This document shows positions 15,193 through 61,772 of a DNA stretch of 64,000 nt, piece after piece. A program made the position numbers and the translations under genes. Source of the stretch: a virus (taxonomy: Duplodnaviria > Caudoviricetes); the IMG/VR virus record IMGVR_UViG_3300028797_000108, positions 75,106 through 139,105 of that record; one strand, written 5' to 3'. Positions within the stretch are counted from its first letter, which is position 1, and each line of letters starts with the position of its first letter. The notes beneath the pieces are model-generated. The model saw nothing but the letters and a program-made list of their open reading frames with translations, had not been told where the DNA came from and ran no database searches.

Positions 15193-15342
15193 ATGAAACA
15201 GAAACGTGAAAAACATATTGAAACTCAAGAAGAAAAAGAAGCTCGCTGGGCAAAAGCCAAAAAGCAAGCGAGGTCTTTTGCCAGACAAGCGGGCATAAAG
15301 ATTGACCGCAAACCGAAGCTTACAGAATTATACGACTACTAG
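15193..15342 (+). CDS. 49-aa basic peptide
   Basis: GAGG RBS, ends just before the first tRNA. Confidence 0.6.
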   Translation: MKQKREKHIETQEEKEARWAKAKKQARSFARQAGIKIDRKPKLTELYDY

Positions 15343-15347
15343 TCTCA

Positions 15348-15431
15348 GGCCTTATGGCGGAACTGGTAGACGCTGGGGACTTAAAATCCCCTGCCAGTAA
15401 TGGCGTCCGGGTTCGAGTCCCGGTGGGGCCA
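15348..15431 (+). tRNA. tRNA-Leu(TAA)
   Basis: Cloverleaf, GGGGA-CTTAAAA-TCCCC, long variable arm. Confidence 0.95.
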
Positions 15432-15440
15432 TACATTTTT

Positions 15441-15571
15441 CGGGCGATAGTTCAAGCGGTCGGGAATACTTTCCGAGTAAAACAGAACGATCTCAGACCT
15501 TCGTGCTAGGTCGCGAGAAAACACGAAGTTAGGACGATAGACTTCCCTGGGTTCAAGTCCTGGGGCGCTCG
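15441..15571 (+). ncRNA. tRNA-like RNA with expanded multi-hairpin centre
   Basis: 5' CGGGCGATAGTTCAAGCGG, 3' T-arm CTGGG-TTCAAGT-CCTGG and acceptor strand, followed by CTA; no anticodon loop. Confidence 0.55.
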
Positions 15572-15582
15572 CTAGCTTTTAT

Positions 15583-15656
15583 ACCCTAGTAGCTCAACTG
15601 GATAGAGCAACGCTCTTCTAAAGCGTGGGTTGCAGGTTCGAGTCCTGCCTAGGGTA
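15583..15656 (+). tRNA. tRNA-Arg(TCT)
   Basis: ACGCT-CTTCTAA-AGCGT. Confidence 0.95.
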
Positions 15657-15663
15657 CTTCTTT

Positions 15664-15735
15664 GAGGGTAAAGCTTTGACGGTGAAGCAATAGACTTTTA
15701 ATCTATGGAACCGGCTTCGAGCTCCGGTACCCTCA
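15664..15735 (+). tRNA. tRNA-Lys(TTT)
   Basis: ATAGA-CTTTTAA-TCTAT; atypical T-arm. Confidence 0.85.
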
Positions 15736-15745
15736 CTAAATTTCT

Positions 15746-15816
15746 TGCCGGTTCGTATAGCGGTAGTATAGGGGACTTTGAATCCTTTGGCGTTGGTCCG
15801 ACTCCAGCACCGGCAG
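15746..15816 (+). tRNA. tRNA-Gln(TTG)
   Basis: GGGGA-CTTTGAA-TCCTT. Confidence 0.9.
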
Positions 15817-15880
15817 CTATAGATCACGAGGTGTGCAAATCCCTCAAGCAGAGTGAACTGCGATAACAAGTTAAACTCAA

Positions 15881-15953
15881 CGGCAGATAGCACAATGGTT
15901 AGTGCAGCGGACTCATAACCCGCCGGTTGAAGGTTCAAATCCTTCTTTGCCGA
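15881..15953 (+). tRNA. tRNA-CAT (Ile2 or elongator Met)
   Basis: GCGGA-CTCATAA-CCCGC. Confidence 0.9.
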
Positions 15954-16014
15954 TAGTTAATAAACTGTTGATAAAACTGTGCATTAACTGTATAATTCAA
16001 ATTTTGAACTATTC

Positions 16015-16040
16015 ATGGCGCCCTAAAAAGCGCCATTTTT
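16015..16040 (+). terminator. Rho-independent terminator
   Basis: ATGGCGC...GCGCCAT-TTTT. Confidence 0.65.
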
Positions 16041-16181
16041 CTATCTCAAAACGATGAAATTTAAGCAGTTATATTACAGTAATTTACAGTAAACCGCGTA
16101 GATTGTGTTGATTTAAGCACTGTTGATATATTGTCAATTTGATCATAAATCACTGTAAATAAAAAATTTACATTTCTACCA

Positions 16182-16221
16182 TTGACGGACTTCCAGATAG
16201 TTGTTATATTTTACTCGTAAA
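16182..16221 (+). promoter_or_regulatory. Early promoter
   Basis: TTGACG-17-TATATT-TTACTCGTAAA. Confidence 0.85.
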
Positions 16222-16246
16222 TTGAAAACAACAAGGAAACTGGAAT

Positions 16247-16438
16247 ATGAACAAACAAGAACTGATCCGCGCGCTGATTGAAACCGCCGAAAAGGAAGGC
16301 TCAAACATTCATTTTGACCATCAATTTGGGTGGGACGGTTTTGTTGATTCCAACGGCGAATTCTGGGCTACCGACGGTCACTCCGTCTCCGAAATTTGTC
16401 GCAGAATTTTCAGTGCCTGTCAGGAAGAATTCATCTAA
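16247..16438 (+). CDS. Small hypothetical protein
   Basis: Behind promoter, AAGGA RBS. Confidence 0.75.
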   Translation: MNKQELIRALIETAEKEGSNIHFDHQFGWDGFVDSNGEFWATDGHSVSEICRRIFSACQEEFI

Positions 16439-16450
16439 GGAGAACCGACA

Positions 16451-17023
16451 ATGATTTTGAAAATCAACTACGCTCGTGCCCTTTACGTTGAATCTGACAC
16501 GATCTATCCGGAAGGTCCCAACAGCGACCACACCTATCAAACGGTGCGCTGCGACGGCCGCATCCGCAAGACCTGTTGGTTCCGCCTCGGTGAAGCATTC
16601 TTGAAGTTCCCCGAACATCGCGCGGTCACCCGCAAGGAAATCGCCGCAGTGATGGAACATACCTTCAGCCCTGACGGCACAAAGGATTGGGGCACGGGTA
16701 TCTGGAGTCCGGATATGTGGACGACCTTCGTTCATGATGGCTTCATCAAGAAGTTTCAGAACGGAAATCGCTTCACCTATATGCTCTCCGATTGGGGTCG
16801 CAGGACTACCATCGCAGCGCAGCGCGACTTCAGCAAGGAATTCACGAAGGCAACGCTTCGCATTCAGGCTATGCCCAAATCGGTTGAAGAAGCCAAGCAG
16901 CTCGTCAAGATCAAGTTTGACAAGCACGAGAATTACCTCGCCCGCAAGGCCGCAGGTTTTCCGAAAAAGAAGGCTCGCCTCGCAAAGGCTGCCCTCCGCG
17001 CTGAAGCAAAAATTTTGAAATAA
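16451..17023 (+). CDS. Hypothetical basic protein
   Basis: AAGGAG RBS, 190 aa. Confidence 0.8.
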   Translation: MILKINYARALYVESDTIYPEGPNSDHTYQTVRCDGRIRKTCWFRLGEAFLKFPEHRAVTRKEIAAVMEHTFSPDGTKDWGTGIWSPDMWTTFVHDGFIKKFQNGNRFTYMLSDWGRRTTIAAQRDFSKEFTKATLRIQAMPKSVEEAKQLVKIKFDKHENYLARKAAGFPKKKARLAKAALRAEAKILK

Positions 17024-17048
17024 AATGAAAAAAATTCAAAATTTACCC

Positions 17049-17088
17049 TTGACAGTTCAAAATTAAATTGTTATATTTTAACTGTTGA
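17049..17088 (+). promoter_or_regulatory. Early promoter with no downstream ORF
   Basis: TTGACA-17-TATATT. Confidence 0.75.
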
Positions 17089-17094
17089 AATTGA

Positions 17095-17372
17095 ACAACT
17101 ACTGCCTCTGGTTCAACGCCGCGGGCCACGCAGGACAACAAAAACCCACGCGGTTCACCTACTGCCCATCCTAGGAAGGGCGACAACTTGGAGATTGAAA
17201 TGAAACTTTTGACGTGTATGTAGAACGGTTTGAGCTTTCATCGTATCAGCTCATCAATGATTGGGGCGATGAAGGCGAGCGGATTTTGATCCCACCGTTG
17301 CGGTAGGCCTAGATGAGCGTTGCTCGAGTTGCAGAAGATCCTCGGAAAAATCTTCACGGGCGTCACCCGGAA
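17095..17372 (+). ncRNA. Candidate structured ncRNA
   Basis: Between two promoters, no substantial ORF, several hairpins. Confidence 0.4.
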
Positions 17373-17391
17373 AAAATTGACAAAAATACCC

Positions 17392-17425
17392 TTGACAGTT
17401 TCAGAAAACTATTTTATATTTGATA
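17392..17425 (+). promoter_or_regulatory. Promoter of main tRNA cluster; late promoter TATAAATA also at 17507-17514
   Basis: TTGACA-17-TATATT. Confidence 0.75.
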
Positions 17426-17532
17426 CTGTCAAAACAAAATCAATCCCGAGCGGATTTGATTGCAGCTTGAAATAGCGGAAACACAAGATTTTGAAAAGTT
17501 GTTGTTTATAAATATGAATAACAACTGAACAT

Positions 17533-17605
17533 GCCTCGGTGGCGCAATTGGTAGCGCAGCGGACTCTTAATCCGTGGGTTGAAGGTTCGAGTCCTTCCCG
17601 GGGCA
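17533..17605 (+). tRNA. tRNA-Lys(CTT)
   Basis: GCGGA-CTCTTAA-TCCGT. Confidence 0.95.
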
Positions 17606-18221
17606 CTACTGGACAAGATCGCGTCAAACTGAAGAGGATTGTTAGTAGTAGCGAAGTACAAGCTATGAACAGGGTTGCTAGTAGGTTTGATGGCAACGCG
17701 TGCAGACCCCACCGATGAGGAGGGGTGAACTGCAGAGGAACCCGACCTGGGGGCGCATCGGGGTGAGTCTTGACAATTTGATGAAAGCGAATCATCGCAA
17801 GTCGTTGGATGTAGTTATAAATGGAAAAACAGGGTCCGCTTCGGCGAGCTCATAATTGTGGGTCCGACTCCCACCGTCCGTAAAACGATTCTGTGAGTAG
17901 TCAAAGGGCTAATCTAAAGCTTGCCTCCAATGCGAAAAAAGCTGAGCGTGCCACCGGCGAGCGATGGTGGGGTTACAGCATAACCACAAAGCTGCACAAT
18001 GCAAGATCGCCTTCGGCAGATAGTTCAAGCGTAGAACATCGGGTTGTCCCCGAAGATTACTGGGTAAAAGCCAAGGCTACCAGAAGTCACCGATTGTTGC
18101 ATATCCTGCTTGGGTCGCGGTTGGTCCCGTGAGACTCGCTCAGGCTTGGTTGAAGGTTCAACAAGTAAAAGAGGACTTAGGCTTGCTTGGCGCCTTAAGC
18201 CTAACCAGCACAAGCATTATT

Positions 18222-18295
18222 GGGGTCATAGCTCAATTTGGTAGAGCACTAGCTTTGCAAGCTAGGGGTTCCGGGTTCGAGTCCCGGTGGCTCCA
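18222..18295 (+). tRNA. tRNA-Ala(TGC)
   Basis: CTAGC-TTTGCAA-GCTAG, G3-U70. Confidence 0.95.
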
Positions 18296-18306
18296 CGAAA
18301 CATTTC

Positions 18307-18668
18307 GGGCTCCCTCCGCCATTTGCAAGTAAGACAAAGAAGGCACGACAAACCGAAAGTAGTTACATTGGTTGCTCTTTGTGGCTGCGATCTTGGTCCT
18401 TCCTAATGAAAGTACCATACAAAGGAGTAGGTAGATCCGTGAAGGAATCGCTCTAAGCTGGAGTAGATCGGATCGGGAATCGCTGAAACGACCGAAGATG
18501 CCTATAACAGAAAGGTTGATGGTGTGCAGCTAGCACTGTCGCTGAAGTAAATGTGCGGCATTGGAAGGATGGAAACGGTGAGGCGGTATACTGATGGGAC
18601 AGGGATAAGCTCCTGACTTTTAGGTATATGTGGTAGCCACTGTGGAGGTTCAAATCCTTCGGTGCCCA
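18307..18668 (+). ncRNA. About 360-nt candidate RNA ending in a tRNA-like T-arm and acceptor strand
   Basis: GGGCTCC (18307) can pair with GGTGCCC (18661); T-arm GGAGG-TTCAAAT-CCTTC; followed by A+CTA like the tRNAs. Confidence 0.4.
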
Positions 18669-18679
18669 CTAATTATTAT

Positions 18680-18753
18680 TGGATTGTAGCTCAGTTTGGT
18701 AGAGCGGTCGGCTGTTAACCGATTGGTCGCAGGTTCGAGTCCTGCCTTTCCAG
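18680..18753 (+). tRNA. tRNA-Asn(GTT)
   Basis: GTCGG-CTGTTAA-CCGAT. Confidence 0.9.
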
Positions 18754-18780
18754 CTAAACGCCGATTAGGCAACATTTTCT

Positions 18781-18856
18781 GTGCTATAGCCGTCCGCAGG
18801 AATCGGACGCCGGCAGTCGCCGGAAATCAGTGGTTCAATTCCACTCGTAGCCACCA
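18781..18856 (+). ncRNA. tRNA-like RNA with 4-nt anticodon loop and encoded CCA
   Basis: CCGGC-AGTC-GCCGG, T-arm AGTGG-TTCAATT-CCACT, ends GCCACCA. Confidence 0.55.
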
Positions 18857-18970
18857 AAGGAAATGGCTTGGTTAAGATAACCTCAACATCAAGTAGCCGA
18901 AAGGTGTGGGACACTTGACGATCAGACAACTCGAGTAATGCTGAACGCTTGAGTCCCAGCGCTTTTGATT

Positions 18971-19043
18971 GCCTGTATAGCTCAGCTGGTAGAGCAGCGG
19001 CTTTGTAACCCGCAGGTCGGGGGTTCGGATCCCTCTGCAGGCG
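18971..19043 (+). tRNA. tRNA-Thr(TGT)
   Basis: GCGGC-TTTGTAA-CCCGC. Confidence 0.9.
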
Positions 19044-19181
19044 CTAATGGTTGAATGTTGGGTATCCTATAGGAATAAACAATAGCCTATAGGTGGACCG
19101 AGCCCCGTTCTGTAATGGGATGGGTGCCCGCATTTCACAATGCCGGTAGTCCGGTGGTGGCGGAACCACCTTAAAAACTTG

Positions 19182-19256
19182 CGGGCTGTAGCTCAGTCTG
19201 GCTAGAGCACTTGATTTGGGATCAAGGGGTCGTGGGTTCAAATCCCGCCAGCCCGA
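19182..19256 (+). tRNA. tRNA-Pro(TGG)
   Basis: CTTGA-TTTGGGA-TCAAG. Confidence 0.95.
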
Positions 19257-19265
19257 TAACATTAT

Positions 19266-19338
19266 TGCGGAGTGGAGCAGTGGTTAGCTCGGCAGCCTCA
19301 TAAGCTGAAGGTCGTGGGTTCAAGTCCCACCTCCGCTA
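19266..19338 (+). tRNA. tRNA-Met(CAT), initiator-like
   Basis: fMet-like body (GCGGAGTGGAGCAG), 1:72 mismatch, CTCATAA loop; lacks the three G-C anticodon-stem pairs. Confidence 0.85.
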
Positions 19339-19350
19339 CTAAAAGTATTT

Positions 19351-19436
19351 GCCAGTGCGCCGACGTTGGAGAGTCGGACCGGACTGTAAATCCGGGGCCC
19401 TCACGGGCTTTGGTGGTTCAAATCCACCCTCTGGCA
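19351..19436 (+). tRNA. tRNA-Tyr(GTA)
   Basis: CCGGA-CTGTAAA-TCCGG, long variable arm. Confidence 0.9.
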
Positions 19437-19450
19437 CGAAAAGAATTTTT

Positions 19451-19522
19451 GGCTCCTTGGTCTAGAGGTTAGGACACCACATTTTCAATGTGAGAACCCG
19501 GGTTCGAGTCCCGGAGGAGCTA
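19451..19522 (+). tRNA. tRNA-Glu(TTC)
   Basis: Glu-type D-arm GTCTAGAGGTTAGGAC; CACA-TTTTCAA-TGTG. Confidence 0.9.
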
Positions 19523-19681
19523 CTAAGCCTCGGATGGCATCGTTTGATTATGGCAAGACGCCCACGCGAAGTGGGAAAGAGCGGTCCGAATCCGCTTGCC
19601 TGAACAGTGAGTACACGGTCTGGGGCTAGGAGCAAAAAGCTGAGAGACGTCGTAGGTGTATTGCTCCGGTACTTTTGAATT

Positions 19682-19752
19682 GGGTTCATAGTTTAATGGA
19701 TGAATACCGGCTTGTCACGCCGGCGGTACGGGATCGTGACCCGTTGGACCCG
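19682..19752 (+). tRNA. tRNA-Asp(GTC)
   Basis: CCGGC-TTGTCAC-GCCGG; atypical T-loop ATCGTGA. Confidence 0.85.
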
Positions 19753-19759
19753 CTAAAAA

Positions 19760-19977
19760 TTGCTGTTTGACAAATCAGGTGAACTGCAGATAGCCTGAGG
19801 CGTTGATTGCGGTTTGAGGTCCGGCGACGGCTGGATGCAAAGGAATAGCCGGAAGCGCGGTTCTAGAGGAAGTTCCTCAGGAGCCGGTGAAGGGAGGCCC
19901 CAAAAGGGCATTAAAACAACGGCGGGAAGGCACCCTCTAAAGAGCTCTGAATATGCAGCCCTCAGAGCAAACAGCAA
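19760..19977 (+). ncRNA. Candidate 218-nt multi-hairpin RNA
   Basis: Perfect 10-bp closing stem TTGCTGTTTG/CAAACAGCAA spanning the whole gap between two tRNAs. Confidence 0.55.
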
Positions 19978-19981
19978 CTAT

Positions 19982-20055
19982 CGGCATGCATAACGATTGG
20001 TTCGTTTGCCACTCTGATAAGGTGGAGATTGAAGGTTCAACTCCTTCCGTGCCGA
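19982..20055 (+). tRNA. tRNA-Ile(GAT)
   Basis: CCACT-CTGATAA-GGTGG. Confidence 0.9.
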
Positions 20056-20058
20056 CTA

Positions 20059-20118
20059 AAGATACTTACAGCAAAGTTATCAACATTCTTTTTTTGGTAG
20101 AATCGCAAAGGTATCTTG
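20059..20118 (+). ncRNA. Scaffold RNA copy A (short hairpin cargo)
   Basis: AAGATACT-TACAGCAA...GGTATCTTG. Confidence 0.6.
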
Positions 20119-20123
20119 ATTAT

Positions 20124-20196
20124 GCCGCGGTAGCCTAGGTGGTCATGGCGCGGGACTGAAAATCCTGAGATGTTGGTCCGATTCCAACCCTCGGCA
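20124..20196 (+). tRNA. tRNA-Phe(GAA)
   Basis: CGGGA-CTGAAAA-TCCTG. Confidence 0.9.
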
Positions 20197-20209
20197 CTAA
20201 AACAATTAT

Positions 20210-20281
20210 AGCGGGGAGAGGATGGTTCCTCCGCCGGTCTCATAAGCCGTGCTTCTGCAGGTTCGAGTCCTGCCGCCGCTA
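20210..20281 (+). tRNA. tRNA-Met(CAT), atypical D-arm
   Basis: CGGT-CTCATAA-GCCG, canonical T-arm. Confidence 0.75.
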
Positions 20282-20285
20282 CTAT

Positions 20286-20369
20286 GGCCTACTGGCGGAA
20301 CTGGTAGACGCGCCTGACTTAGGATCAGGTGCCCGTGAGGGCGTGGGAGTTCGAGTCTCTCGTAGGTCA
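20286..20369 (+). tRNA. tRNA-Leu(TAG)
   Basis: CCTGA-CTTAGGA-TCAGG. Confidence 0.95.
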
Positions 20370-20389
20370 CTAAAACACAAGGAGTTATT

Positions 20390-20596
20390 ATGACTGAACA
20401 AGAAGCAAAAAGAGCAAAAGAAATTGAAGCAATGCTGAATTGGAATTTGCAGCGATCCCAGGCCTTGGGTGAATTCCCTTTGCCCGTCACTTGTGGTATC
20501 ACTCAGATCTTTAACTGCGTTCAGTCTGAAAGGGCGGCTGCTTGGAAGCGCAAGAATGATATTGCGAACGGGCGAGTCCCTGATTCGGTTCCGTAG
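20390..20596 (+). CDS. Small hypothetical protein inside the tRNA cluster
   Basis: AAGGAG RBS, 68 aa; stop codon lies inside tRNA-Arg. Confidence 0.65.
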   Translation: MTEQEAKRAKEIEAMLNWNLQRSQALGEFPLPVTCGITQIFNCVQSERAAAWKRKNDIANGRVPDSVP

Positions 20597-20662
20597 CTCA
20601 GTCGGATTTAGAGCGCCACGCTACGAACGTGGAGGTCCCAGGTTCGAGTCCTGGCGGAACTA
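20587..20662 (+). tRNA. tRNA-Arg(ACG)
   Basis: CCACG-CTACGAA-CGTGG. Confidence 0.95.
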
Positions 20663-20719
20663 CTAAAGCGGTTTGGGTGGAGGTACGTCGCCGTTATAAA
20701 TATCTCAAATCGCTTTTAT

Positions 20720-20803
20720 GCTTACATGAATCCGAGCGGCAAAGGACGCAGTCTGCAAAACTGCGGGCGAAAGCCTTCGCAGGTTCGAGTCCTGCTGTAA
20801 GCT
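20720..20803 (+). tRNA. tRNA-Cys(GCA) with long variable arm
   Basis: GCAGT-CTGCAAA-ACTGC, U73, variable hairpin GGC-GAAA-GCC. Confidence 0.85.
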
Positions 20804-20809
20804 CTAATA

Positions 20810-20935
20810 AAGATAGAGACAGCAAAATTAAATGCTATCCCAAGGCTGAAACGAGGGGTCCGAATCCCCTCATGGAGGTTGGTCTTCCATTCGTCTAGTG
20901 GTCTAGGACTCAGCCAAAGCAAAAAATCTATCTTG
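20810..20935 (+). ncRNA. Scaffold RNA copy B carrying a circularly permuted tRNA (CCC anticodon-like)
   Basis: AAGATAGA/TCTATCTT stem; T-arm, sealed acceptor stem, D-arm in that order. Confidence 0.75.
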
Positions 20936-20939
20936 TCTT

Positions 20940-21023
20940 GGAGGGTTAGCCTAACGGTAAGGCAGCGGTCTTGAAAACCGCCGCGGGGAAACTCGCTTGT
21001 AGGTTCAAATCCTGCACCCTCCG
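20940..21023 (+). tRNA. tRNA-Ser(TGA)
   Basis: GCGGT-CTTGAAA-ACCGC, long variable arm. Confidence 0.95.
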
Positions 21024-21037
21024 CTAAAACATTTTAA

Positions 21038-21109
21038 GTCCCATTGGTGTAGTGGTAGCACGTCTCCTTGCCATGGAGAAGGTCGCCGGTCCGAATCCGG
21101 CATGGGGCT
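21038..21109 (+). tRNA. tRNA-Gly(GCC)
   Basis: TCTCC-TTGCCAT-GGAGA. Confidence 0.9.
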
Positions 21110-21113
21110 CTAT

Positions 21114-21240
21114 AGATACGCACAGCAATGTTAAAGCATGGTCTGATAAACCCCGTGTTGCAGGTTCGAGTCCTGTCGGGTCGCTGAAAGGTGACCTGTA
21201 GCTCAATCGGTAGAGCAGGAAAAGCAAAAAACGTATCTTG
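21114..21240 (+). ncRNA. Scaffold RNA copy C carrying a circularly permuted tRNA (GAT anticodon-like)
   Basis: AGATACG/CGTATCT stem; anticodon loop, T-arm, GAAA-capped acceptor stem, D-arm. Confidence 0.75.
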
Positions 21241-21245
21241 TATAA

Positions 21246-21316
21246 GTCCTATTGGTGTAGTGGTAACATTTCTGCCTTCCAAGCAGGTGTGGCGAGTTCG
21301 AGTCTCGCATAGGGCT
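21246..21316 (+). tRNA. tRNA-Gly(TCC)
   Basis: TCTGC-CTTCCAA-GCAGG. Confidence 0.9.
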
Positions 21317-21319
21317 CTA

Positions 21320-21442
21320 AAGGTGCTCTCAGCTAAATTTTCATAGGAAAATTCTAGAGTAGTATAATTGGTTATTACACCCTCCGATAAAAGAGGGAGA
21401 TCCTGGTTCGAGTCCAGGCGCCAGACCCCGAAAGGCATCTTG
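21320..21442 (+). ncRNA. Scaffold RNA copy D enclosing a degenerate tRNA in normal order
   Basis: AAGGTGCT/GGCATCTT stem, CAGCTAA; inner D-arm, CCCTC/GAGGG arm with 8-nt loop, T-arm. Confidence 0.65.
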
Positions 21443-21450
21443 ATCTTACC

Positions 21451-21522
21451 CCCGTGGTAGTGTAATGGTTAGCACACGAGCTTGTGGCGCTCGTAGTTCG
21501 GATTCGAGTTCCGGCCTTGGGA
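21451..21522 (+). tRNA. tRNA-His(GTG)
   Basis: CGAGC-TTGTGGC-GCTCG; no encoded G-1, A73. Confidence 0.85.
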
Positions 21523-21525
21523 TAT

Positions 21526-21599
21526 ACCTCCGTGGCGCAGTGGTTTAGCGCGGCTGCCCTACAAGCAGCGGGTCGTAGGTTCAACTCCTACCGGGGGTA
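21526..21599 (+). tRNA. tRNA-Val(TAC)
   Basis: GCTGC-CCTACAA-GCAGC (C33). Confidence 0.9.
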
Positions 21600-21603
21600 C
21601 TAT

Positions 21604-21675
21604 TGGGGCGTGGTGTAATTGGTAACACGCATGACTCTGACTCATGAATTCTTGGTTCAAGTCCAGGCGCCCCAA
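21604..21675 (+). tRNA. tRNA-Gln(CTG)
   Basis: CATGA-CTCTGAC-TCATG. Confidence 0.95.
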
Positions 21676-21755
21676 CTATGGTGACCCAAAGCCAAAACAA
21701 ATTGGGTCGTTTCTAGTGAGTAGCCTTGTAGCTAGATCTGTAATTAAAGGCCCTT

Positions 21756-21828
21756 AGGGATATAGTTCAATTGGTAGAACGGCGGACTCCAAACCCGCGT
21801 GTTAGAGGTTCAAATCCTTTTGTCCCTG
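21756..21828 (+). tRNA. tRNA-Trp(CCA)
   Basis: GCGGA-CTCCAAA-CCCGC. Confidence 0.9.
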
Positions 21829-21832
21829 TTAT

Positions 21833-21916
21833 GGCCGAGTGGCGGAATTGGTAGACGCGGCGGACTCAAAATCCGCTGACCGCGAGGTCGTGAGAGTTCA
21901 AGTCTCTCCTTGGCCA
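21833..21916 (+). tRNA. tRNA-Leu(CAA)
   Basis: GCGGA-CTCAAAA-TCCGC. Confidence 0.95.
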
Positions 21917-21920
21917 CTAT

Positions 21921-22038
21921 AGATACCAACAGCAAAAATGCGTCTTGCTCCTCCTGGGGTTATAGCTCAATTGGTAGAGCACCGCCGACATACTGGCGGG
22001 GGTTGCGGGTTCGAGTCCCGATATGCAATGGTATCTTG
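21921..22038 (+). ncRNA. Scaffold RNA copy E carrying a tRNA-Ala-like body permuted at the T-arm/acceptor junction
   Basis: AGATACCA/TGGTATCT stem; TTGCTCC precedes GGGGTTATAGCTCAATTGGTAGAGC. Confidence 0.7.
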
Positions 22039-22043
22039 ACTTT

Positions 22044-22129
22044 GGAGGAATACACTAATTGGTTAAGTGGCCACCCTGCTAAGGTGGTGTCCCGAAAGGG
22101 GCGTGAAGGTTCAAGTCCTTCTTCCTCCG
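22044..22129 (+). tRNA. tRNA-Ser(GCT)
   Basis: CCACC-CTGCTAA-GGTGG, long variable arm. Confidence 0.95.
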
Positions 22130-22159
22130 TATTGACATTTTTTGACAATTTCTTGTTAG

Positions 22160-22189
22160 CGCCCGAATTGATGAAATTCGGGCGTTTTT
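22160..22189 (+). terminator. Terminator of the tRNA cluster
   Basis: CGCCCGAATT...AATTCGGGCG-TTTTT. Confidence 0.85.
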
Positions 22190-22240
22190 GTTATGTAAAC
22201 TTTATTTTACATATTTTTTCATATTTTGCGGATTATTTAG

Positions 22241-22280
22241 TTGACAGGTGGCGTGGAAATTGTTATATTTTACTCGTAAA
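22241..22280 (+). promoter_or_regulatory. Early promoter
   Basis: TTGACA-17-TATATT-TTACTCGTAAA. Confidence 0.85.
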
Positions 22281-22304
22281 CAAAACAACTGAAGGATTTG
22301 AACT

Positions 22305-22781
22305 ATGAGTATTGATTCCAAACGCCGCTCCGATATCGCCTCCACCCCGTGGGAAAAGCTTGAATATGGCCGTGACCTTACCGATTGTCTTCGCAATGAC
22401 TACCCCGAAAATTATTGTTCTGTTGAAGACCGAAATGAATGGAACGGTTTTGTTTGCGGAAAAGATAAGATGCCGAAGCGCGTCCTGATCCGTGACTCCT
22501 TCATGCGCCGTATGCCTGACGGTCACTGGGTTGAACAGCGTAAGGATTGGGAAGCCCTTGAACTCCTTGATTTTGAAATGAAGGACGCCTACATGATGGG
22601 CAAAACTCCTGAAGGAGAAGAAATTTGGGTGAACCGCACCGTTCACGTCGCAGCCCGTGACTGGGACGAAGCAACGAGAATTTACAACTGGCACAAGGAT
22701 CGCTGGATGAGCTGCGGCTTGATTTCTGGCTGGATGAATTTCTGGACTGACCGTGCCATCAACGCTGAAAAGAAGGCTTAA
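22305..22781 (+). CDS. Hypothetical early protein
   Basis: Behind promoter, AAGGA RBS. Confidence 0.8.
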   Translation: MSIDSKRRSDIASTPWEKLEYGRDLTDCLRNDYPENYCSVEDRNEWNGFVCGKDKMPKRVLIRDSFMRRMPDGHWVEQRKDWEALELLDFEMKDAYMMGKTPEGEEIWVNRTVHVAARDWDEATRIYNWHKDRWMSCGLISGWMNFWTDRAINAEKKA

Positions 22782-43323: not shown

Positions 43324-45648
43324 ATGGCAAATAAAGAAGTATTTTATCAGGTCGTAAGCGGTGACAAGATCCTACCCGTGTATGATGTTGATGCTCATAA
43401 TCGCATCGCCGCAGAAGGTCAAGCACTCGAAGGCCTATCTGGCGAGTTCAAGACATTCTCCGGAGCTATCTCTGGTAAGGTCTCAGGACTAAGTGGCGAG
43501 TTCAAAGATTTCGTAACCCAAACAAATCAGGAGTTCATTAACACATCTTCGTGGGCAAATGAAACATTTCAGCCGACAGGTGATTATGTTTCAGCGTCAG
43601 ATTTCTCAGCCTTCCAACAGCAGGTTGAAGATGCTCTAGATACGAAAGTTGACAAATCTACTTATAATGATTTTGTTGAAGAGGCTAGAGCGTGGGATAA
43701 TGAATTTTATACAGCCGGTGCTGACATTGAAATTTCAGGGCATGAAATTTCAGTTAAAAGTGATTTTGTAAGATTACCCTACTTACAAGCAAATTATTAT
43801 GACAAAGACACCGTTGATGAAAAGATAGCAAATTTCGGCGGGTTCCAAAAGGCGTCACCGACTGGCGCTGATAATCATCCTGATGTCAGCGAACCTCGCA
43901 CAAATATCATTTATCTTGTAAAGGTCGGCACATCTGAAAAGGATCCTTACTACGAATGGATTTATGATGCCGTAAACGGATGGGAGTGTATTGGCGAAAT
44001 GTCAGTGCCGCTTGCTGACTATTACACAAAGATTGAAGCCGATGCAAGGTTCCAACCTATTGGCGATTATGTTTCAGCAAGTGACCTCAACAATTATTAC
44101 ACGGTACCTGAAGTAAATGATATTGTCAGTGACCTTGAAGACCGTGTTGAGTCTGCTTATGGTGACTTGTTTAACACAACGCTCAAGGCCGGCACAAAGA
44201 TCACAATAACAACAGCAGCTGGTGCTAAGCCGGATGATATTGAATACACAATCAATGCTGATGCACCTGATATTCCTACGCTTGAAGGCGAAAGCGGTAT
44301 CAGCGCACAATACATCACTGCACAAAATAAGTGGAAGGTAGGTCTTGAAAGATTTGATGACGCTGGCTTTGCCAAGTTCTCAACATCAGCAAACACATTT
44401 GCGACAAGCGCTAAGCTTATTGGCTATCATCAAGATCTTAACTTAAACGAAAACAAGATATCACTTGTTGAAGACAAAATCATTATGCAGCCTGGCTTGT
44501 ATCACGTTGACATGCAGATCACGCTGTCAACTACTGGTGCTGAAAATGCTTATTATGAAACTATCATCAGATCATTGGCAGGATCTTGCTCAGACACCAA
44601 GATCATTGATGCATCATTCCAGCATAGTGAAACCGTTGACCTATCTTATGACATTAAGATTGCCAATGATGATACTCCACTTGAAACAACCATTGAAGGT
44701 TTCCAGGTTGGTGGTACCGCTACAGTTAATAACTTGAACATCCATGAAATTTTGCAGATGCCTTCTAAGATTAACGGAGGCGGCGGCAATTATGTGGCTG
44801 GTGATGGTATTAACATTATCAATGACACGGTTTCAGTTAAGATAGGCGACGGTCTTTGGGTTCCGGCATCATCAAACAATTTGGAAGTTAAGCTCGGCAA
44901 GGGTTTGACATTCTCAAGCGACGGCGGCATTAACGCATTGACGATTGACAATAAGGTTGAAGATGTTGTGGACACAGTTGAAAAATTGTCAGAAGACCTT
45001 GACACAAAGGTGACGGTTAACATGCCAGTTGCTTCAATTACCGACGTGTTCCATTCAGAGTACTGGCAAAACATTGACCAAGGTCAAGATGACGAAGGCT
45101 TGTATATTGCTCAGCTATTCTCAGTGCCTATCAACAATAAACTTTATGTTAGCGCGGCTGACGCAGAAATGATTACGAACATCGCAATTTATTCACATCA
45201 GGCATTCAGCAATTCAGATGTTATTTTCGGATTGCTTGAATTTGACTTTGATGGCAACGGCGGAACTGGTGATACGAACTGGGTAGCCGATACTGGTCCT
45301 GTTAGTTGGAACGCCGCTGGTAGACATGAATTCCCGCTAATTCATATGCATCCTGACCGTGCTGAACTTCAGGCTAACAAGATGTATTATGCAGTCGCTT
45401 GCGTTAAGAAAGGCTCTAGAAACAATTTGTGGCTGGCTGGAACAACAGGCTATTCACAAGCATTTAACAGTGACCCACGCATTGCATTTGGTTTTGGTAA
45501 CTGCACTACTGGCACTGGTGAGAACGCATTGAGATTTGACACATCGGCTGGTACGATTAGAAACGTTTCACGTTCTTATAATGAAACATGCCACTCTAAC
45601 CCAAGATTCTTTATGCAAATAAGAAACAAGAAGGTACCGAAGGCTTAA
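43324..45648 (+). CDS. Tail-fibre-like virion protein
   Basis: 774 aa; FQPxGDYVSASD twice, YTAG/YVAGDGINI repeats, YYTKIE. Confidence 0.7.
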   Translation: MANKEVFYQVVSGDKILPVYDVDAHNRIAAEGQALEGLSGEFKTFSGAISGKVSGLSGEFKDFVTQTNQEFINTSSWANETFQPTGDYVSASDFSAFQQQVEDALDTKVDKSTYNDFVEEARAWDNEFYTAGADIEISGHEISVKSDFVRLPYLQANYYDKDTVDEKIANFGGFQKASPTGADNHPDVSEPRTNIIYLVKVGTSEKDPYYEWIYDAVNGWECIGEMSVPLADYYTKIEADARFQPIGDYVSASDLNNYYTVPEVNDIVSDLEDRVESAYGDLFNTTLKAGTKITITTAAGAKPDDIEYTINADAPDIPTLEGESGISAQYITAQNKWKVGLERFDDAGFAKFSTSANTFATSAKLIGYHQDLNLNENKISLVEDKIIMQPGLYHVDMQITLSTTGAENAYYETIIRSLAGSCSDTKIIDASFQHSETVDLSYDIKIANDDTPLETTIEGFQVGGTATVNNLNIHEILQMPSKINGGGGNYVAGDGINIINDTVSVKIGDGLWVPASSNNLEVKLGKGLTFSSDGGINALTIDNKVEDVVDTVEKLSEDLDTKVTVNMPVASITDVFHSEYWQNIDQGQDDEGLYIAQLFSVPINNKLYVSAADAEMITNIAIYSHQAFSNSDVIFGLLEFDFDGNGGTGDTNWVADTGPVSWNAAGRHEFPLIHMHPDRAELQANKMYYAVACVKKGSRNNLWLAGTTGYSQAFNSDPRIAFGFGNCTTGTGENALRFDTSAGTIRNVSRSYNETCHSNPRFFMQIRNKKVPKA

Positions 45649-45649
45649 T

Positions 45650-45970
45650 ATGTTAAGAAATTATAACAGATTATATTTGAACAAGCAAACCGATCATGAG
45701 GCAAGCAAAGTCATTTATGATTCTCACGGCGTCACTGGTCTAGAATGGAACCAATACATCGGACGAATCATCATTAATGATTTCATCAAGCAGCTTGATG
45801 ACCATGTTGGTACTGAATTTGCGCCTTACATGGGCGTGCTGCCTTTCATTGAGTATGGAATGTTTCAGTCAGCGATAGGCGTCATACAGCAGATTGAAAT
45901 CCCTGGTTTGGAACGCCAGAAAGCTTGGCTGCTTGAAGCGTTGAAGGAAGGTGAGGACCGTTATGAGTAA
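45650..45970 (+). CDS. Hypothetical protein (possible fibre chaperone)
   Basis: 106 aa between fibre-like genes. Confidence 0.75.
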   Translation: MLRNYNRLYLNKQTDHEASKVIYDSHGVTGLEWNQYIGRIIINDFIKQLDDHVGTEFAPYMGVLPFIEYGMFQSAIGVIQQIEIPGLERQKAWLLEALKEGEDRYE

Positions 45971-47588
45971 GTTAAATAAAATTATTACCAATCTTCCGGT
46001 TTCATTGACAACGGAAGAAAATGAAGCGCTTAGCCAAACCTTCTCAGCCGTAACTGCTGCTGGAGGTGGTGGCGGCGGACAAAGCATTCGTTATGCTGGT
46101 GACGGCACTACTATTGTGTTGAACACAACGCAGAATACTTTCAGCTTGCATCAAGACTACATTAACGCAGTTCAGGGAATACCTACGAAAGTTACTGATC
46201 TTACTGACTCAGCGAATTATGAACTTACATCACATGCATCATCAACATATTTGACAAAGGCAAGCGCCGATAATGATTATGGCGCTAAGGCTGATGTTAC
46301 TGCGCTTAAGGAAGCATCGGCCGGTTGGGATAAAGGTGCTGCACTTACTGCATATAGTGCGAATGGTAAATGGCTTATTGCTGATGATATTACTGGAAAA
46401 CAAGATACGCTTACATTTGGATATAATGGTTCTAAGATTAGTGCCATCAATGAAACAGCCATTGACCAACCTGATGTCAGCAACTTCTTAACAAAAGAAA
46501 TTGCAGACACTTATTATCAGCCGACTGGAAATTATCAGCCCGCCGGTGCTTATGCAACAAGCAGCACTATTGCTGGTGACAGCGTGTATGGATTGACTAC
46601 CGCTGGATGGCAAATTGTTGAAGGCGGCGGAGGCGGAGGCGGCGGAATGATTGCCGTCACGCATGATGATACACTAAGTGGCGACGGAACAGACGCAGCA
46701 CACAAGCTAGGTGTTGTTTGGTCAACATTAAGTGCAGGCACAGTAAATTCTGCATTAAGCGCAGGAAGCGCAGCGAAGGCAGCATTATTGGGTACATCAA
46801 GCTTGGCTGATATTACAGCTGCCATCAATTTGAAAGCTGATGCAACTGATATTTCTGATATGTTAACCAAGACGCTTGCTGCGTCATTATATCAGGCAAA
46901 AACTGATATGACTGCATATCAAACAACGGCTGGTATGACAGCATATCAGACAACAGCTAGCATGTCAGATTACTGGAAGAAAACTGAAACAAGTAGTGAT
47001 GCACAGATTTCGGCAGCTTTAGCTGCTAAGCAAGAAACATTGACATTCAATTTTGCTGATGCTAGCACTACACAAATATCAGGCATAAACGGATATGACT
47101 TTGTTATTCCTTCTTTGCCGCACATCACAGTTATTCCTGGTACATATATTTCTGCCTCTGAAGGCACTGGTAGCGATGCTGGTAAATGGACAGTTGGAGT
47201 AAATGCTACTGCTAAAAACTACATAGACGCAATACCAAATAAAGTTACCAAGCCTGATGTTGCTGATAAGAACTTTATTTACACAACGTCTGGAAGCACT
47301 TCGGGATGGACTGATGCTGATGCGATTTATGCAACAACGGCAGCGGTTGATGCTAAGCTAAGTAAGGCTGACATTAGCATTACAGGCGCTGATAACGTTT
47401 TGAGAATAAAAGAAGCCGCAAATACATCGGCTACATTCTCAGCTGTTTCATGGTATGCTAATACCGCGGTCAATGCATTTAAGGCACAGAAGATATTTGT
47501 CGTTCGTAATGACGATGATATTATGGCTCATGCCCAATTTGCGAATAACCAAGGTTGCCTGTTCTTTGTTGTGTCAGGTCACTCGTAA
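45963..47588 (+). CDS. Fibre-like virion protein
   Basis: Ala/Thr/Ser-rich, poly-Gly hinges, KQDTL, HDDTLSGDG, YQPTGNYQPAGAY. Confidence 0.7.
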   Translation: MSKLNKIITNLPVSLTTEENEALSQTFSAVTAAGGGGGGQSIRYAGDGTTIVLNTTQNTFSLHQDYINAVQGIPTKVTDLTDSANYELTSHASSTYLTKASADNDYGAKADVTALKEASAGWDKGAALTAYSANGKWLIADDITGKQDTLTFGYNGSKISAINETAIDQPDVSNFLTKEIADTYYQPTGNYQPAGAYATSSTIAGDSVYGLTTAGWQIVEGGGGGGGGMIAVTHDDTLSGDGTDAAHKLGVVWSTLSAGTVNSALSAGSAAKAALLGTSSLADITAAINLKADATDISDMLTKTLAASLYQAKTDMTAYQTTAGMTAYQTTASMSDYWKKTETSSDAQISAALAAKQETLTFNFADASTTQISGINGYDFVIPSLPHITVIPGTYISASEGTGSDAGKWTVGVNATAKNYIDAIPNKVTKPDVADKNFIYTTSGSTSGWTDADAIYATTAAVDAKLSKADISITGADNVLRIKEAANTSATFSAVSWYANTAVNAFKAQKIFVVRNDDDIMAHAQFANNQGCLFFVVSGHS

Positions 47589-47606
47589 ATAATCTGAGGA
47601 CTATTT

Positions 47607-49247
47607 ATGGCTTGGAAAATTGATGGAAAAATTGGGTTGCTTGCATCTAATTATGAAGGCAACCCACAGCAAGATACTTACCGTATTGCATATAAAGATG
47701 CAAGCGGTAATGATTATGAAATTGAAAAGGTGTATTTTCTATCGGCTGATGACATTGCATATTTTGAGACGTTGACACAACAGGAACAACTTGCAGAACT
47801 TGCTACAGGTAAATATAATGTATGGCATCGTTATTGGGATCCTATGTATTACTTTGCACACTGTTATACTTATCAGAGCAATTCTTTACCTTCATTTTTA
47901 TTCTCACCTGAAAAATCTGGTGAACTTAAATCATTTACCGTTTATACCAAATCAGCCTGTAATGCAAAGTCACACTTGATTTTGGCAAGGTATGATGGCG
48001 ATGATATTGCTACATTAGATTATTCAAAGTTTTATGTCATTGCGAATAATAACGACTTCACAATTCGTTCATCAACGCTTTGCGATTTCAAAACACAATA
48101 TAATGAAGATGTTTATGAAACGGTCATAGAATACACAGGCTCATCGCCAATGCTGCTGAGCAAAAGCACGCATTACATGTTTGTAGCTAGGATGCGTCAT
48201 GATAATGATAATAATTATGATCTTGTGTATGACGCTGACTTGTCCGCAACAGAACCTGTTGCCCGTTCGTTGCAGTATGATAACTATAACATTCATGATA
48301 ATAAAAATCAGTACTGGCGTGATGCAGTAAATGCAACTGTTGAAAACGGATTTGTAAAATTCGGCATATCGGCTGATGATCTACAGTGGGCTAATGAAAA
48401 CGAACCGTTTTCAGCGTGTTATGTTGAATGGGATCAGTATGATGATTCCACAAAAACATTATCATGGCATACATTGTGTAATTATCCGGTAGGTTCAAAT
48501 AATCCTATTGATGTTAGCGATGATGTTGAATGGTATAGACTTAACAATGTCAATCCCAGAATTTCAGCTACATCAATTAAGACATCAGCATATACTGCAT
48601 TTGCTGATGATGGCATGCGCTTTGCATCAATACTTGCTTGTAATGAACACAAGTCACCTACTGCACGCGGCGGATTCCGTTATCCTTATAATGAACCTGA
48701 TGACCAAACATATTCATCATGTATAGATACATATCAGTACTATAGGATATCTGGTGAACAGTATGCATGCTTGCTGTATACGCCTACAACTGACTGTCGT
48801 CTTGTTTCTTTCTCATTCTTCAATAACTCGACTTGCGCATATAATGTTGACAACCGCGCAATAATTGAACTTAATGATGCAAAGACCCAAGGAACGGCAT
48901 ACGGCGCATTAACAGAAGACCATCGCATTGAATATAAGAAATCACGAGTTATAACGATGACTGGAACAACTGAAGTAAGTAGCCAAGTTGAAATGATTTA
49001 TAAGCATTACATGGTTCCTTCGCAAACAATAAATTTGTCAGCAGGAAAAACTTATGCATTTGCTTTGTATAATGATTTCAATGATTCTAAACATGGCATA
49101 GCATATTTTAGAAAAAATGCTTCAGCAGACGAAAGACACTATAACATCATACGAAGTAATCCTTATTACCTTGGCGGATGGACAGCTACTGACTATAATG
49201 CATACGCAATTATTACAACGGCAGCAGTTGAAGACGCACAAGCATAA
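47607..49247 (+). CDS. Hypothetical virion protein (possible receptor-binding, beta-rich)
   Basis: 546 aa, Tyr/Asn/Asp-rich, internally duplicated domain pattern (F.P...L.SF...). Confidence 0.7.
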   Translation: MAWKIDGKIGLLASNYEGNPQQDTYRIAYKDASGNDYEIEKVYFLSADDIAYFETLTQQEQLAELATGKYNVWHRYWDPMYYFAHCYTYQSNSLPSFLFSPEKSGELKSFTVYTKSACNAKSHLILARYDGDDIATLDYSKFYVIANNNDFTIRSSTLCDFKTQYNEDVYETVIEYTGSSPMLLSKSTHYMFVARMRHDNDNNYDLVYDADLSATEPVARSLQYDNYNIHDNKNQYWRDAVNATVENGFVKFGISADDLQWANENEPFSACYVEWDQYDDSTKTLSWHTLCNYPVGSNNPIDVSDDVEWYRLNNVNPRISATSIKTSAYTAFADDGMRFASILACNEHKSPTARGGFRYPYNEPDDQTYSSCIDTYQYYRISGEQYACLLYTPTTDCRLVSFSFFNNSTCAYNVDNRAIIELNDAKTQGTAYGALTEDHRIEYKKSRVITMTGTTEVSSQVEMIYKHYMVPSQTINLSAGKTYAFALYNDFNDSKHGIAYFRKNASADERHYNIIRSNPYYLGGWTATDYNAYAIITTAAVEDAQA

Positions 49248-49294
49248 CTAGATTATCATTTTCATGGCGGCGCTCACCGGCACCGCCTTTATAG

Positions 49295-49302
49295 TATAAA
49301 TA
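49295..49302 (+). promoter_or_regulatory. T4-type late promoter
   Basis: TATAAATA following a hairpin at about 49266-49288. Confidence 0.7.
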
Positions 49303-49318
49303 CAAAAAAGGGTAAGAT

Positions 49319-49768
49319 ATGCTAGTAGAAACATTTAATAAGATCGTTGATAACATCGCAGCACTGAATGAAAAAGAAGAAATTCATGTTTCTCCTCCTG
49401 ATGAACAGCCGGTTGAACATGAGGAATCAACTGAATCCGCTGATCCGAGAACAGCACTTCGTGACTCTATCAAGTCTCAGGCAGAAATTGCTGAAAGCGT
49501 GATTAAGTCTATCGGAGAAGCATACGCTGACAAATGCAACCACATGACCATTATGGGCAACATGGAAGACCAGATTAAGAACTGGGAACAAACAATGAAG
49601 GGTGCCTGTCATCAGGTTGTGCAGATGGTGAACTCAAAGAAGTTCACTGTTGATAAGCGCGTATGTAACCCACATGCATTTAATATGATTAAGGATTGTG
49701 CTTCTCGTGATACTGACGCATTGAAGACTGCGGCTGCGGTTATCGTATTTTACAATTCTTTGGGATAA
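49319..49768 (+). CDS. Hypothetical late protein
   Basis: 149 aa behind late promoter. Confidence 0.8.
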   Translation: MLVETFNKIVDNIAALNEKEEIHVSPPDEQPVEHEESTESADPRTALRDSIKSQAEIAESVIKSIGEAYADKCNHMTIMGNMEDQIKNWEQTMKGACHQVVQMVNSKKFTVDKRVCNPHAFNMIKDCASRDTDALKTAAAVIVFYNSLG

Positions 49769-49778
49769 GAGGTAAGGA

Positions 49779-51470: not shown

Positions 51471-51471
51471 T

Positions 51472-61406: not shown

Positions 61407-61584
61407 CTTACTGACCGGAGCGAGACTCAACCCAATGAGCTATCGGCAGGTGTAAGTTGCGACCTAGCAGAGGTGCGGCTAGGGCTGTTCGTATAGTACC
61501 AAAGGATGAACTGTTCACGACAGTTCAGTATGCCGTCACAGGCGTATGGAATGTAGTCCGAGTACAGGGTGACCGCTCGGTAAG
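61407..61584 (+). ncRNA. Candidate structured ncRNA
   Basis: Behind TTGTTATATTTT promoter motif; closing stem CTTACTGA/TCGGTAAG; internal hairpins; no credible ORF. Confidence 0.5.
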
Positions 61585-61772
61585 TCCATTGTAAGTCCTC
61601 TTGCGAAGTCATACAGTTCACCAGTCAAAACAAAGTTTAGATTGATGTTAACTGGAGATTGTGAGTTCCCGATATGGGCTTGCTGTCTCCAGTTACCATA
61701 TCAAACAAAGATTTAGAATTCCCCTTAAATAAATAAAATACAAAAACACAAATAATAGAGAGGAATTTAATC

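Follow-up and report, generated by a model that had tools for sequence, protein, structure and literature searches.

A tRNA-shaped phage RNA held in a conserved terminal handle, probably of the Y-RNA type and not a permuted tRNA gene

A transfer RNA (tRNA) array in a phage of the class Caudoviricetes (IMG/VR record IMGVR_UViG_3300028797_000108) contains an element, here called E1, in which the parts of a tRNA stand in permuted order. With a probability of roughly 0.68 we regard E1 as a small Y-RNA-type RNA of the phage, most similar to the bacterial and phage YrlA RNAs, and not as a tRNA gene. It occupies positions 20810–20936 on the + strand of the window, the 64,000-nucleotide (nt) stretch of DNA analysed here, which is the 3′ part of a 139-kb phage record that CheckV estimates to be 37% complete. 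We favor this reading because the outer frame of E1, hereafter called the handle, is common to copies that carry no cargo or are built differently, and because it is tied to a gene for a Ro60-like protein. The fold of E1 is maintained: its end stem of 8 base pairs (bp), the unpaired ACAGCAA and the UCUUG end form a conserved handle, the remainder is a tRNA-shaped module with a T/D elbow, a sealed acceptor stem and an anticodon-like stem, and a Gly-type NCC loop bulges out beside a short helix, P2.

Inside the 8-bp terminal stem of E1 the order of parts is AUCCCAA, one strand of the anticodon-like stem, the T arm, the sealed acceptor, the D arm and the other strand of the anticodon-like stem. 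The anticodon-like 3′ strand is separated from the T arm by a variable loop of 4 nt, and CCA is not encoded at the acceptor-like stem. The features of E1 are as follows.

20810–20817, + strand: 5′ strand of the handle stem P1 (AAGATAGA), pairing with 20927–20934; it covaries among the five window copies and the orthologues
20819–20832, + strand: handle motif, ACAGCAA (20819–20825), two variable bases and TTAAA; predicted single-stranded
20833–20836, + strand: 5′ strand of P2, TGCT, pairing with AGCA at 20918–20921
20837–20843, + strand: anticodon-loop-like 7-mer ATCCCAA (U33, CCC, A37, A38), a bulge between P2 and the anticodon-like stem
20844–20848, + strand: 3′ strand of the anticodon-like stem, GGCTG, pairing with 20911–20915; 100% of cells paired, two double-sided changes
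20853–20871, + strand: T arm with a 6-bp stem and the loop TCCGAAT; two pairs changed on both sides among orthologues
20872–20890, + strand: acceptor-like 7-bp stem (ATGGAGG/CTTCCAT) closed by the loop TTGGT; 96.7% paired, two double-sided changes
20891–20910, + strand: U8-C9, D arm (GTCT / AGTGGTCTA / GGAC) and position 26; invariant in all orthologues
20911–20915, + strand: 5′ strand of the anticodon-like stem, CAGCC, pairing with GGCTG
20916–20926, + strand: 3′ side of the handle internal loop (AAAGCAAAAAA), including the P2 strand AGCA at 20918–20921; an identical 11-mer stands at 21221–21231
20927–20936, + strand: 3′ strand of P1 (TCTATCTT), in P1 pairing, and the conserved end GT; the ATCTTG ending is common to the five window copies

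The original prediction, made from the letters alone, had described a permuted tRNA with a sealed acceptor stem and a CCC anticodon otherwise absent from the set. This anatomy is correct, and the segments that were named (ATCCCAA-GGCTG, the T arm, ATGGAGG-TTGGT-CTTCCAT, the D arm, CAGCC and the clamp TGCT/AGCA) are all found where they had been placed. When E1 is rotated at the acceptor loop and CAGCC is joined to ATCCCAA, ARAGORN calls a tRNA-Gly(CCC), and among the 29 tRNAs that this program finds in the whole 139-kb record there is no second tRNA with a CCC anticodon. The outer frame, that is, the terminal stem 20810–20817/20927–20934 together with ACAGCAA, was absent from that description. 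As encoded, E1 is recognised neither by ARAGORN nor by the Rfam tRNA model. Its minimum free energy is −42.9 kcal/mol, compared with −28.3 ± 3.3 for shuffled sequences (z = −4.45), and none of 200 shuffles was as good. Read from the sequence, the nucleotides that build the L shape of a tRNA (U8, A14, G15, G18, G19, A21, C48, C56 and A58) are in place. In the de-permuted form the T and acceptor stems are separated by one extra nt; we interpret this as a 6-bp T stem, so that the acceptor/T stack amounts to 7 + 6 = 13 bp where 12 is canonical; the extra pair covaries in the orthologues. Ribozyme or intron flanks were also considered and discarded, as no such Rfam family was detected on E1 (E up to 10, over 15200–22400 and 20790–21260).

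One metagenome scan yielded four orthologues of E1 (L115, L116, L117 and L118), all of them located in tRNA arrays of related phages. Their bodies are 86–89% identical to E1, and the real tRNAs that flank them align at 72–82%. On alignment A2 the five-helix structure has 92.4% of cells paired and eight pairs changed on both sides; partners slid out of register reached at most 53% paired and no shuffle matched the observed values. Compensatory changes are seen in four helices. The sequence of helix P2 differs in each orthologue, and its duplex, whose strands are AU-rich, has modest per-sequence support against shuffles (p = 0.003, 0.046, 0.15 and 0.085). CAGCAA is invariant among the orthologues, U73 is kept, and the acceptor loop TTGGT is identical in E1, L115, L116 and L117. 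An NCC triplet followed by A is retained in all four (CCC, CCC, UCC, and UCC or CCC), and the loop sequence adjoining it is not alignable among them. L115 and L117 have no U33 in the loop, and that of L118 is 6–7 nt long and stands in another register. A search of viral contigs for the exact pattern of the E1 T arm and acceptor gave 0 matches, and blastn of E1 against GenBank phages returned only a match to the D arm of a tRNA-Glu.

This conservation bears on the idea that E1 is functionless, either a relic in decay or nothing more than a spacer for the processing of the tRNA operon. E1 does fill a gap between two tRNAs, with tRNA-Cys ending at 20804 (6 nt upstream) and tRNA-Ser starting at 20940 (4 nt downstream), and the failure of ARAGORN and the Rfam tRNA model to recognise it would suit a decayed sequence. 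However, an element that is more similar between related phages than the neighboring tRNAs, that has accumulated compensatory changes in four helices and whose handle is kept across very different phages is hard to see as debris, and we find this idea improbable in the extreme.

The handle is not confined to E1. Defined by an AAGAUAnn stem, ACAGCAA and a UCUUG end, it occurs in five copies within this array, whose terminal stems covary, with ACAGCAA (TCAGCTA in the copy at 21320) and the TCTTG ending kept. The handle motif of E1 (20819–20832) is identical in the sister copy at 21122–21135. The four sister copies differ in what the handle encloses.

20059–20119, + strand: handle RNA with a short hairpin only, without tRNA cargo
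21113–21241, + strand: handle RNA with a permuted tRNA-Ile(GAT)-like cargo, called by ARAGORN after de-permutation; it has an Rfam YrlA match of 42.8 bits (E = 4e-7; gathering score 69)
21320–21443, + strand: handle RNA with an unpermuted tRNA-like body and an 8-nt anticodon loop
21920–22039, + strand: handle RNA with D, anticodon and T arms in normal order

A first scan for the handle pattern alone gave 28 matches, of which four were true and the rest mostly chance. The handle combined with a T-arm pattern was then found at 77 loci in viral contigs, and extraction of handle loci led to 60 distinct elements with many types of cargo. Across the family the handle consists of a terminal stem starting with AAG, an unpaired (A)CAGC(A/G)A after the 5′ strand, and a 3′ end UCU(U/A/C)G, to which E1 conforms. 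Among 38 elements of 110–145 nt, 31 can be de-permuted into a tRNA that ARAGORN calls, and the break point varies along the anticodon stem between permuted members. Near-identical bodies carry different triplets: GAA and GCA alternate in the group L034, L046, L078, L091 and L095, and elements of the type of the sister at 21113–21241, which has GAU, show UGU (L115, L116), UUU (L052) or GUU (L076, L088). An anticodon swapped this freely on one body could not belong to a decoding tRNA. Most copies keep a pyrimidine-U ... A-A loop frame, and by eye the variation seems to concentrate in the triplet and the D loop.

The original prediction had offered, as one of two explanations, a precursor of tRNA-Gly(CCC) that needs ligation. 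As a true circularly permuted gene, E1 would have its flanks cut and its ends ligated into a circle, after which RNase P, a 3′ nuclease and the CCA enzyme would act on the opened acceptor loop and release a tRNA able to decode. The ARAGORN call on rotated E1, the lack of another CCC tRNA in the record, the NCC triplet and U73 kept in orthologues, and the 31 of 38 family members that de-permute in the same manner all speak for such a gene. Nevertheless, we judge it very unlikely, and the precursor claim turned out to be poorly supported in view of the handle flanks, the rare GGG codon, the 13-bp stack and the ligase genes that were not found. A bulge-helix-bulge junction was ruled out by inspection of E1 and the orthologue sequences, since one end of a 4-bp helix holds both putative tRNA ends of E1, within a 2 × 7-nt internal loop, and opposed 3-nt bulges are absent. 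To our knowledge, no splicing-type endonuclease exists in bacteria or phages, which counts against the permuted gene as well. No gene for RtcB, Rnl1 or Rnl2 was found in the incomplete 139-kb record. The flanks that would have to be removed are the same ones that close cargo-less and unpermuted copies, and they track the Ro60-like gene described below. Codon usage is a further point against it: GGG accounts for 83 of 2326 Gly codons (3.6%) and is the rarest of them, and the record already has a tRNA-Gly(UCC), besides one with the anticodon GCC. In the molecule itself, the 6-bp T stem with the resulting 13-bp stack argues against a decoding tRNA, as do the loops of L115 and L117 without U33, that of L118 in another register, and the triplets that vary on near-identical bodies. 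The first acceptor pair of E1 is C1-G72, and this too is unfavorable, G1-C72 being a bacterial Gly identity element.

The candidate partner of the handle RNAs is a protein with the Pfam domains DUF2828 and DUF7788, as in gp087 of Enterococcus phage EfV12-phi1, a 510-amino acid “RNA-binding protein” assigned to phrog_850. Of 24 viral genomes with the handle and a completeness of at least 90%, 23 have DUF7788 (three of an initial four, then 20 of 20), as do 27 of 30 large handle-carrier records; a homologue occurs in 711 of 50,697 GenBank phage records (1.4%). At each of the first four loci the handle RNAs lie on the same strand as the DUF2828-DUF7788 gene and within a few hundred nt of it, and among 15 further loci clean handles are within about 500 nt of the gene in about half and lacking in five. 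In L115 and L116 the Ro60-like gene follows the array on the same strand, with the E1 orthologue 5.7 and 6.8 kb upstream of it. Cultured phages show the same association. Blastn of the sister copy 21113–21241 leads to Enterococcus Schiekvirus phages, and in EfV12-phi1, where the motif ACAGCGA occurs, three handle RNAs stand directly upstream of gp087 on its strand. Shigella phage Sf17, which is Felix O1-like, has four in a tRNA array just after the DUF2828-DUF7788 gene, and Mycobacterium phage Clautastrophe has three just after an annotated “Ro-like RNA binding protein.” The Rfam YrlA model scores these RNAs beside Ro-like genes at 45.2 bits in EfV12 and, for one of the three, at 39.3 bits in Clautastrophe, where the gathering score is 69.

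The partner protein is modelled as a relative of Ro60 in shape, and the resemblance is by predicted fold only. The AlphaFold2 model of the DUF2828-DUF7788 protein from G002 has a pLDDT (predicted local distance difference test) of 81 and a pTM (predicted template modelling score) of 0.76, and the best 13 Foldseek matches of this model are all Ro60/TROVE structures. In VIA-align its best structural match is the Ro60 of Thermus phage phiLo (9KOP; Z = 16.3, with a sequence identity of about 15%), followed by the Ro60 proteins of Xenopus, human and Deinococcus (Z of 12–13), with about 400 residues aligned across the ring and the von Willebrand factor A (vWA) domain; the best unrelated chains reach Z of at most 8.3 and match in the vWA domain only. 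At the sequence level, phmmer of the partner against PDB gave no match, and a 16-sequence profile gave one weak unrelated match against PDB and no Ro60. TROVE itself (PF05731) was set aside as the partner, as it has no match in the record of E1, in four carrier records or in EfV12-phi1, where the DUF2828-DUF7788 type is found instead. A separate observation concerns Listeria phage WIL-1 (L111, NC_025440.1), in which a ROOL RNA-like match at 962–1513 (87 bits; gathering score 99.1) lies about 1 kb upstream of a Ro60-like “RNA-binding protein” gene, and a gene named “tRNA splicing ligase” (5341 onward), which the name suggests is RtcB, is located 1.3 kb downstream of the Ro60-like gene. A handle scan of this locus found none.

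Based on this co-occurrence, the synteny and the predicted fold, the handle may be a docking site for the phage Ro60-like ring protein. E1 would be co-transcribed with the tRNA array and freed by the processing of its neighbors tRNA-Cys and tRNA-Ser. By analogy with the particles of Ro60, Y RNA and PNPase and with YrlA, the tRNA-shaped module might then bring a partner that recognises tRNA to the ring, or distract one. Such a partner could be an exonuclease, RNase P, the CCA enzyme, a ligase for RNA repair or an anticodon nuclease of the host, and the outcome could be a particle for surveillance, repair or decoy in the service of the large tRNA set of the phage. The second explanation in the original prediction, a mimic of an anticodon-cleaved tRNA, comes close to this picture insofar as it proposes a mimic; the specificity for a cleaved anticodon is unsupported.

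Several observations weigh against assigning E1 to the Y RNAs. The Rfam YrlA model does not match E1 even at E up to 10, and the published YrlA motif GNCGAAN0-1G is not literally present, ACAGCAA standing there. A conserved NCC triplet in a canonical-looking loop is foreign to the described YrlA RNAs and could point to a decoding-related role. Among the carriers there is one 91%-complete genome without a DUF7788 protein. Furthermore, neither TROVE nor DUF2828 nor DUF7788 was detected in the 139-kb record of E1, which is weak evidence because only 37% of the genome is represented.

The same absence of a Ro60-like gene can be taken in favor of a tRNA mimic that works without the Ro60-like protein, for example as a decoy or competitive inhibitor of an enzyme that reads the Gly anticodon, either a host tRNA-targeting defence nuclease or a tRNA-modifying enzyme. 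The conserved NCC bulge displayed beside a stable helix would suit this role, the triplets of the sister subfamilies vary while the loop frame is kept, and a 7-bp acceptor stem, as in E1, is the determinant named for RNase P cleavage of Mycobacterium smegmatis YrlA. On the other side, such a mimic would leave the conserved handle without a role; handle and Ro60-like gene occur together in 23 of the 24 near-complete carrier genomes, and the incompleteness of the record takes most of its force from the missing gene. We therefore hold a mimic independent of the ring to be unlikely, and continue with E1 as an RNA of the Y-RNA type.

A bolder extension of the Y-RNA reading, which we put forward tentatively and consider doubtful, is that the handle RNAs form a modular display, in which the Ro60-like ring is fitted with interchangeable tRNA mimics, each with a chosen anticodon loop. 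E1 would be the Gly-specific member, and an arms race would drive the swaps of triplets. If this were the case, the phage would be competing with anticodon-specific nucleases of the host or with other defences directed at tRNA, the particle would serve as decoy, sensor or repair platform, and the function of YrlA-type Y RNAs would become testable in Felix O1-like, Enterococcus and Listeria phages.

The array around E1 spans 15.3–22.1 kb of the window, comprises the 29 tRNAs called by ARAGORN and has further peculiarities. The tRNA-Cys(GCA) called by ARAGORN at 20720–20804 is 85 nt long with a long extra arm; it falls below the Rfam tRNA gathering score and reaches 40.7 bits with the tRNA-Sec model (cut-off 47), and the same odd tRNA-Cys stands beside the region of the E1 orthologue in L115 and L116. 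The ordinary tRNA-Ile(GAT) at 19982–20056 scores only 29.3 bits with the Rfam tRNA model, and its anticodon loop CTGATAA is identical to that of the permuted sister element at 21113–21241. Promoter-like repeated blocks (TTGACAG, a spacer and a TATATTT-like box) are found at about 17040–17090, 17390–17430 and 22240–22280, ahead of genes and RNA groups, both inside the array and after it. Elsewhere in the window, a cow-rumen-2 RNA at 61501–61603 scores 74.1 bits, above the Rfam gathering score of 66, in keeping with an origin from the rumen, and six large open reading frames (ORFs) in a row at 43324–53187 (436–774 amino acids) lack any PHROG match at E 1e-5. Divergence of the phage is very high; ten large ORFs gave only two recognisable products, an SbcC-like nuclease subunit and an ATPase. 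Relatives were also sought through the ORF at 22305–22781 downstream of the array, and none were found.

The description of Y RNAs that contain a tRNA-like domain goes back to 2014, and the structure of a phage Ro60 together with its RNAs followed in 2025. To these E1 adds a version that keeps a whole anticodon-like loop, of Gly type and conserved, inside a phage tRNA array. The handle family is very widespread, and the protein that probably partners it, a distant look-alike of Ro60, is annotated only as DUF2828. The handle/gene pair occurs in cultured Felix O1-like, Enterococcus, Listeria and mycobacterial phages, and its function is thus open to ordinary genetics and to pull-downs. There is also a risk for genome annotation, in that such elements may be mistaken for permuted or broken tRNA genes. 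In our literature search neither the ACAGCAA handle nor a role of DUF2828 as partner of an RNA turned up in any paper, and the comparison with YrlA was made by its published motif.

Permuted tRNA genes of Cyanidioschyzon merolae, other algae and archaea resemble E1 in that the 3′ half comes first, a short linker joins the acceptor ends, and de-permutation gives a cloverleaf. Those genes rely on a bulge-helix-bulge motif, a splicing endonuclease and a ligase. In contrast, the flanks of E1 are a conserved handle of putative protein-binding type without a bulge-helix-bulge, and the break points vary within its family; no phage case of a permuted tRNA was found in the literature. A different likeness is offered by the dictyostelid Class I RNAs, which start with AAG, have a 6-bp terminal stem kept in structure and not in sequence, carry beside the 5′ strand an 11-nt motif with C6, C9, A10 and A11, have a variable middle, and end in CUGU (PMC7919456). 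By this published description the handle is similar, with its AAG start, CAGCAA beside the 5′ strand and CUUGU end, and it fits C6, C9, A10 and A11. However, the Class I RNAs are eukaryotic, are 42–65 nt long, have no tRNA-like cargo and have a reported partner protein of the RNA recognition motif (RRM) type (PMC7919456), and the Rfam Class I RNA model had no match in the window search (E up to 10, 15200–22400).

Closer systems are found among the Y RNAs of phages and bacteria. The Ro60 ring of Thermus phage phiLo binds Yrl1 and Yrl2, which are encoded upstream of it, and recruits the host PNPase (PMC12135203, 2025; PDB 9KOP, 9L5Y). Like the handle RNAs, Yrl1 and Yrl2 are Y-like, with a 5′-3′ stem flanking a bulge that has a short conserved motif; the motif is CGAA where E1 has ACAGCAA, and the term “tRNA-like” does not occur in the text of PMC12135203. 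A survey of jumbo phages has noted ROT/TROVE proteins with a tRNA-like partner as RNA-repair platforms. The nearest counterpart is YrlA (RF02553), in which a terminal stem and a short single-stranded motif are combined with a tRNA-like domain that runs from the T arm through an acceptor-like stem-loop to the D arm; it was located close to Ro60 genes in 254 bacteria and in 22 phages (Chen et al., 2014; PMC4201824). The YrlA of M. smegmatis, with 7 bp in its acceptor stem, is cleaved by RNase P and acquires CCA (PMC4201824). YrlA has GNCGAAN0-1G near its 5′ end where E1 has ACAGCAA, and the ACAGCGA of EfV12-phi1 is intermediate between the two. E1 differs in retaining a complete anticodon-like loop with a Gly-type triplet and in the extra helix P2. 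Its presumed partner is the DUF2828-DUF7788 protein, Ro60-like in predicted fold, whereas that of YrlA is Ro60/Rsr, and the YrlA type is characterised by a Ro60 orthologue encoded on its strand at a distance of up to about 4 kb, whereas E1 lies in a tRNA array of a 37%-complete record without a Ro60-like gene. What the two RNAs have in common is their architecture: in both, the 5′ and 3′ ends pair beside a single-stranded motif, which in YrlA binds protein, and a T arm, an acceptor-like stem-loop and a D arm follow in the same order, and YrlA RNAs, like the phage handle RNAs, are encoded in phages together with tRNAs or with genes of the Ro60 type.
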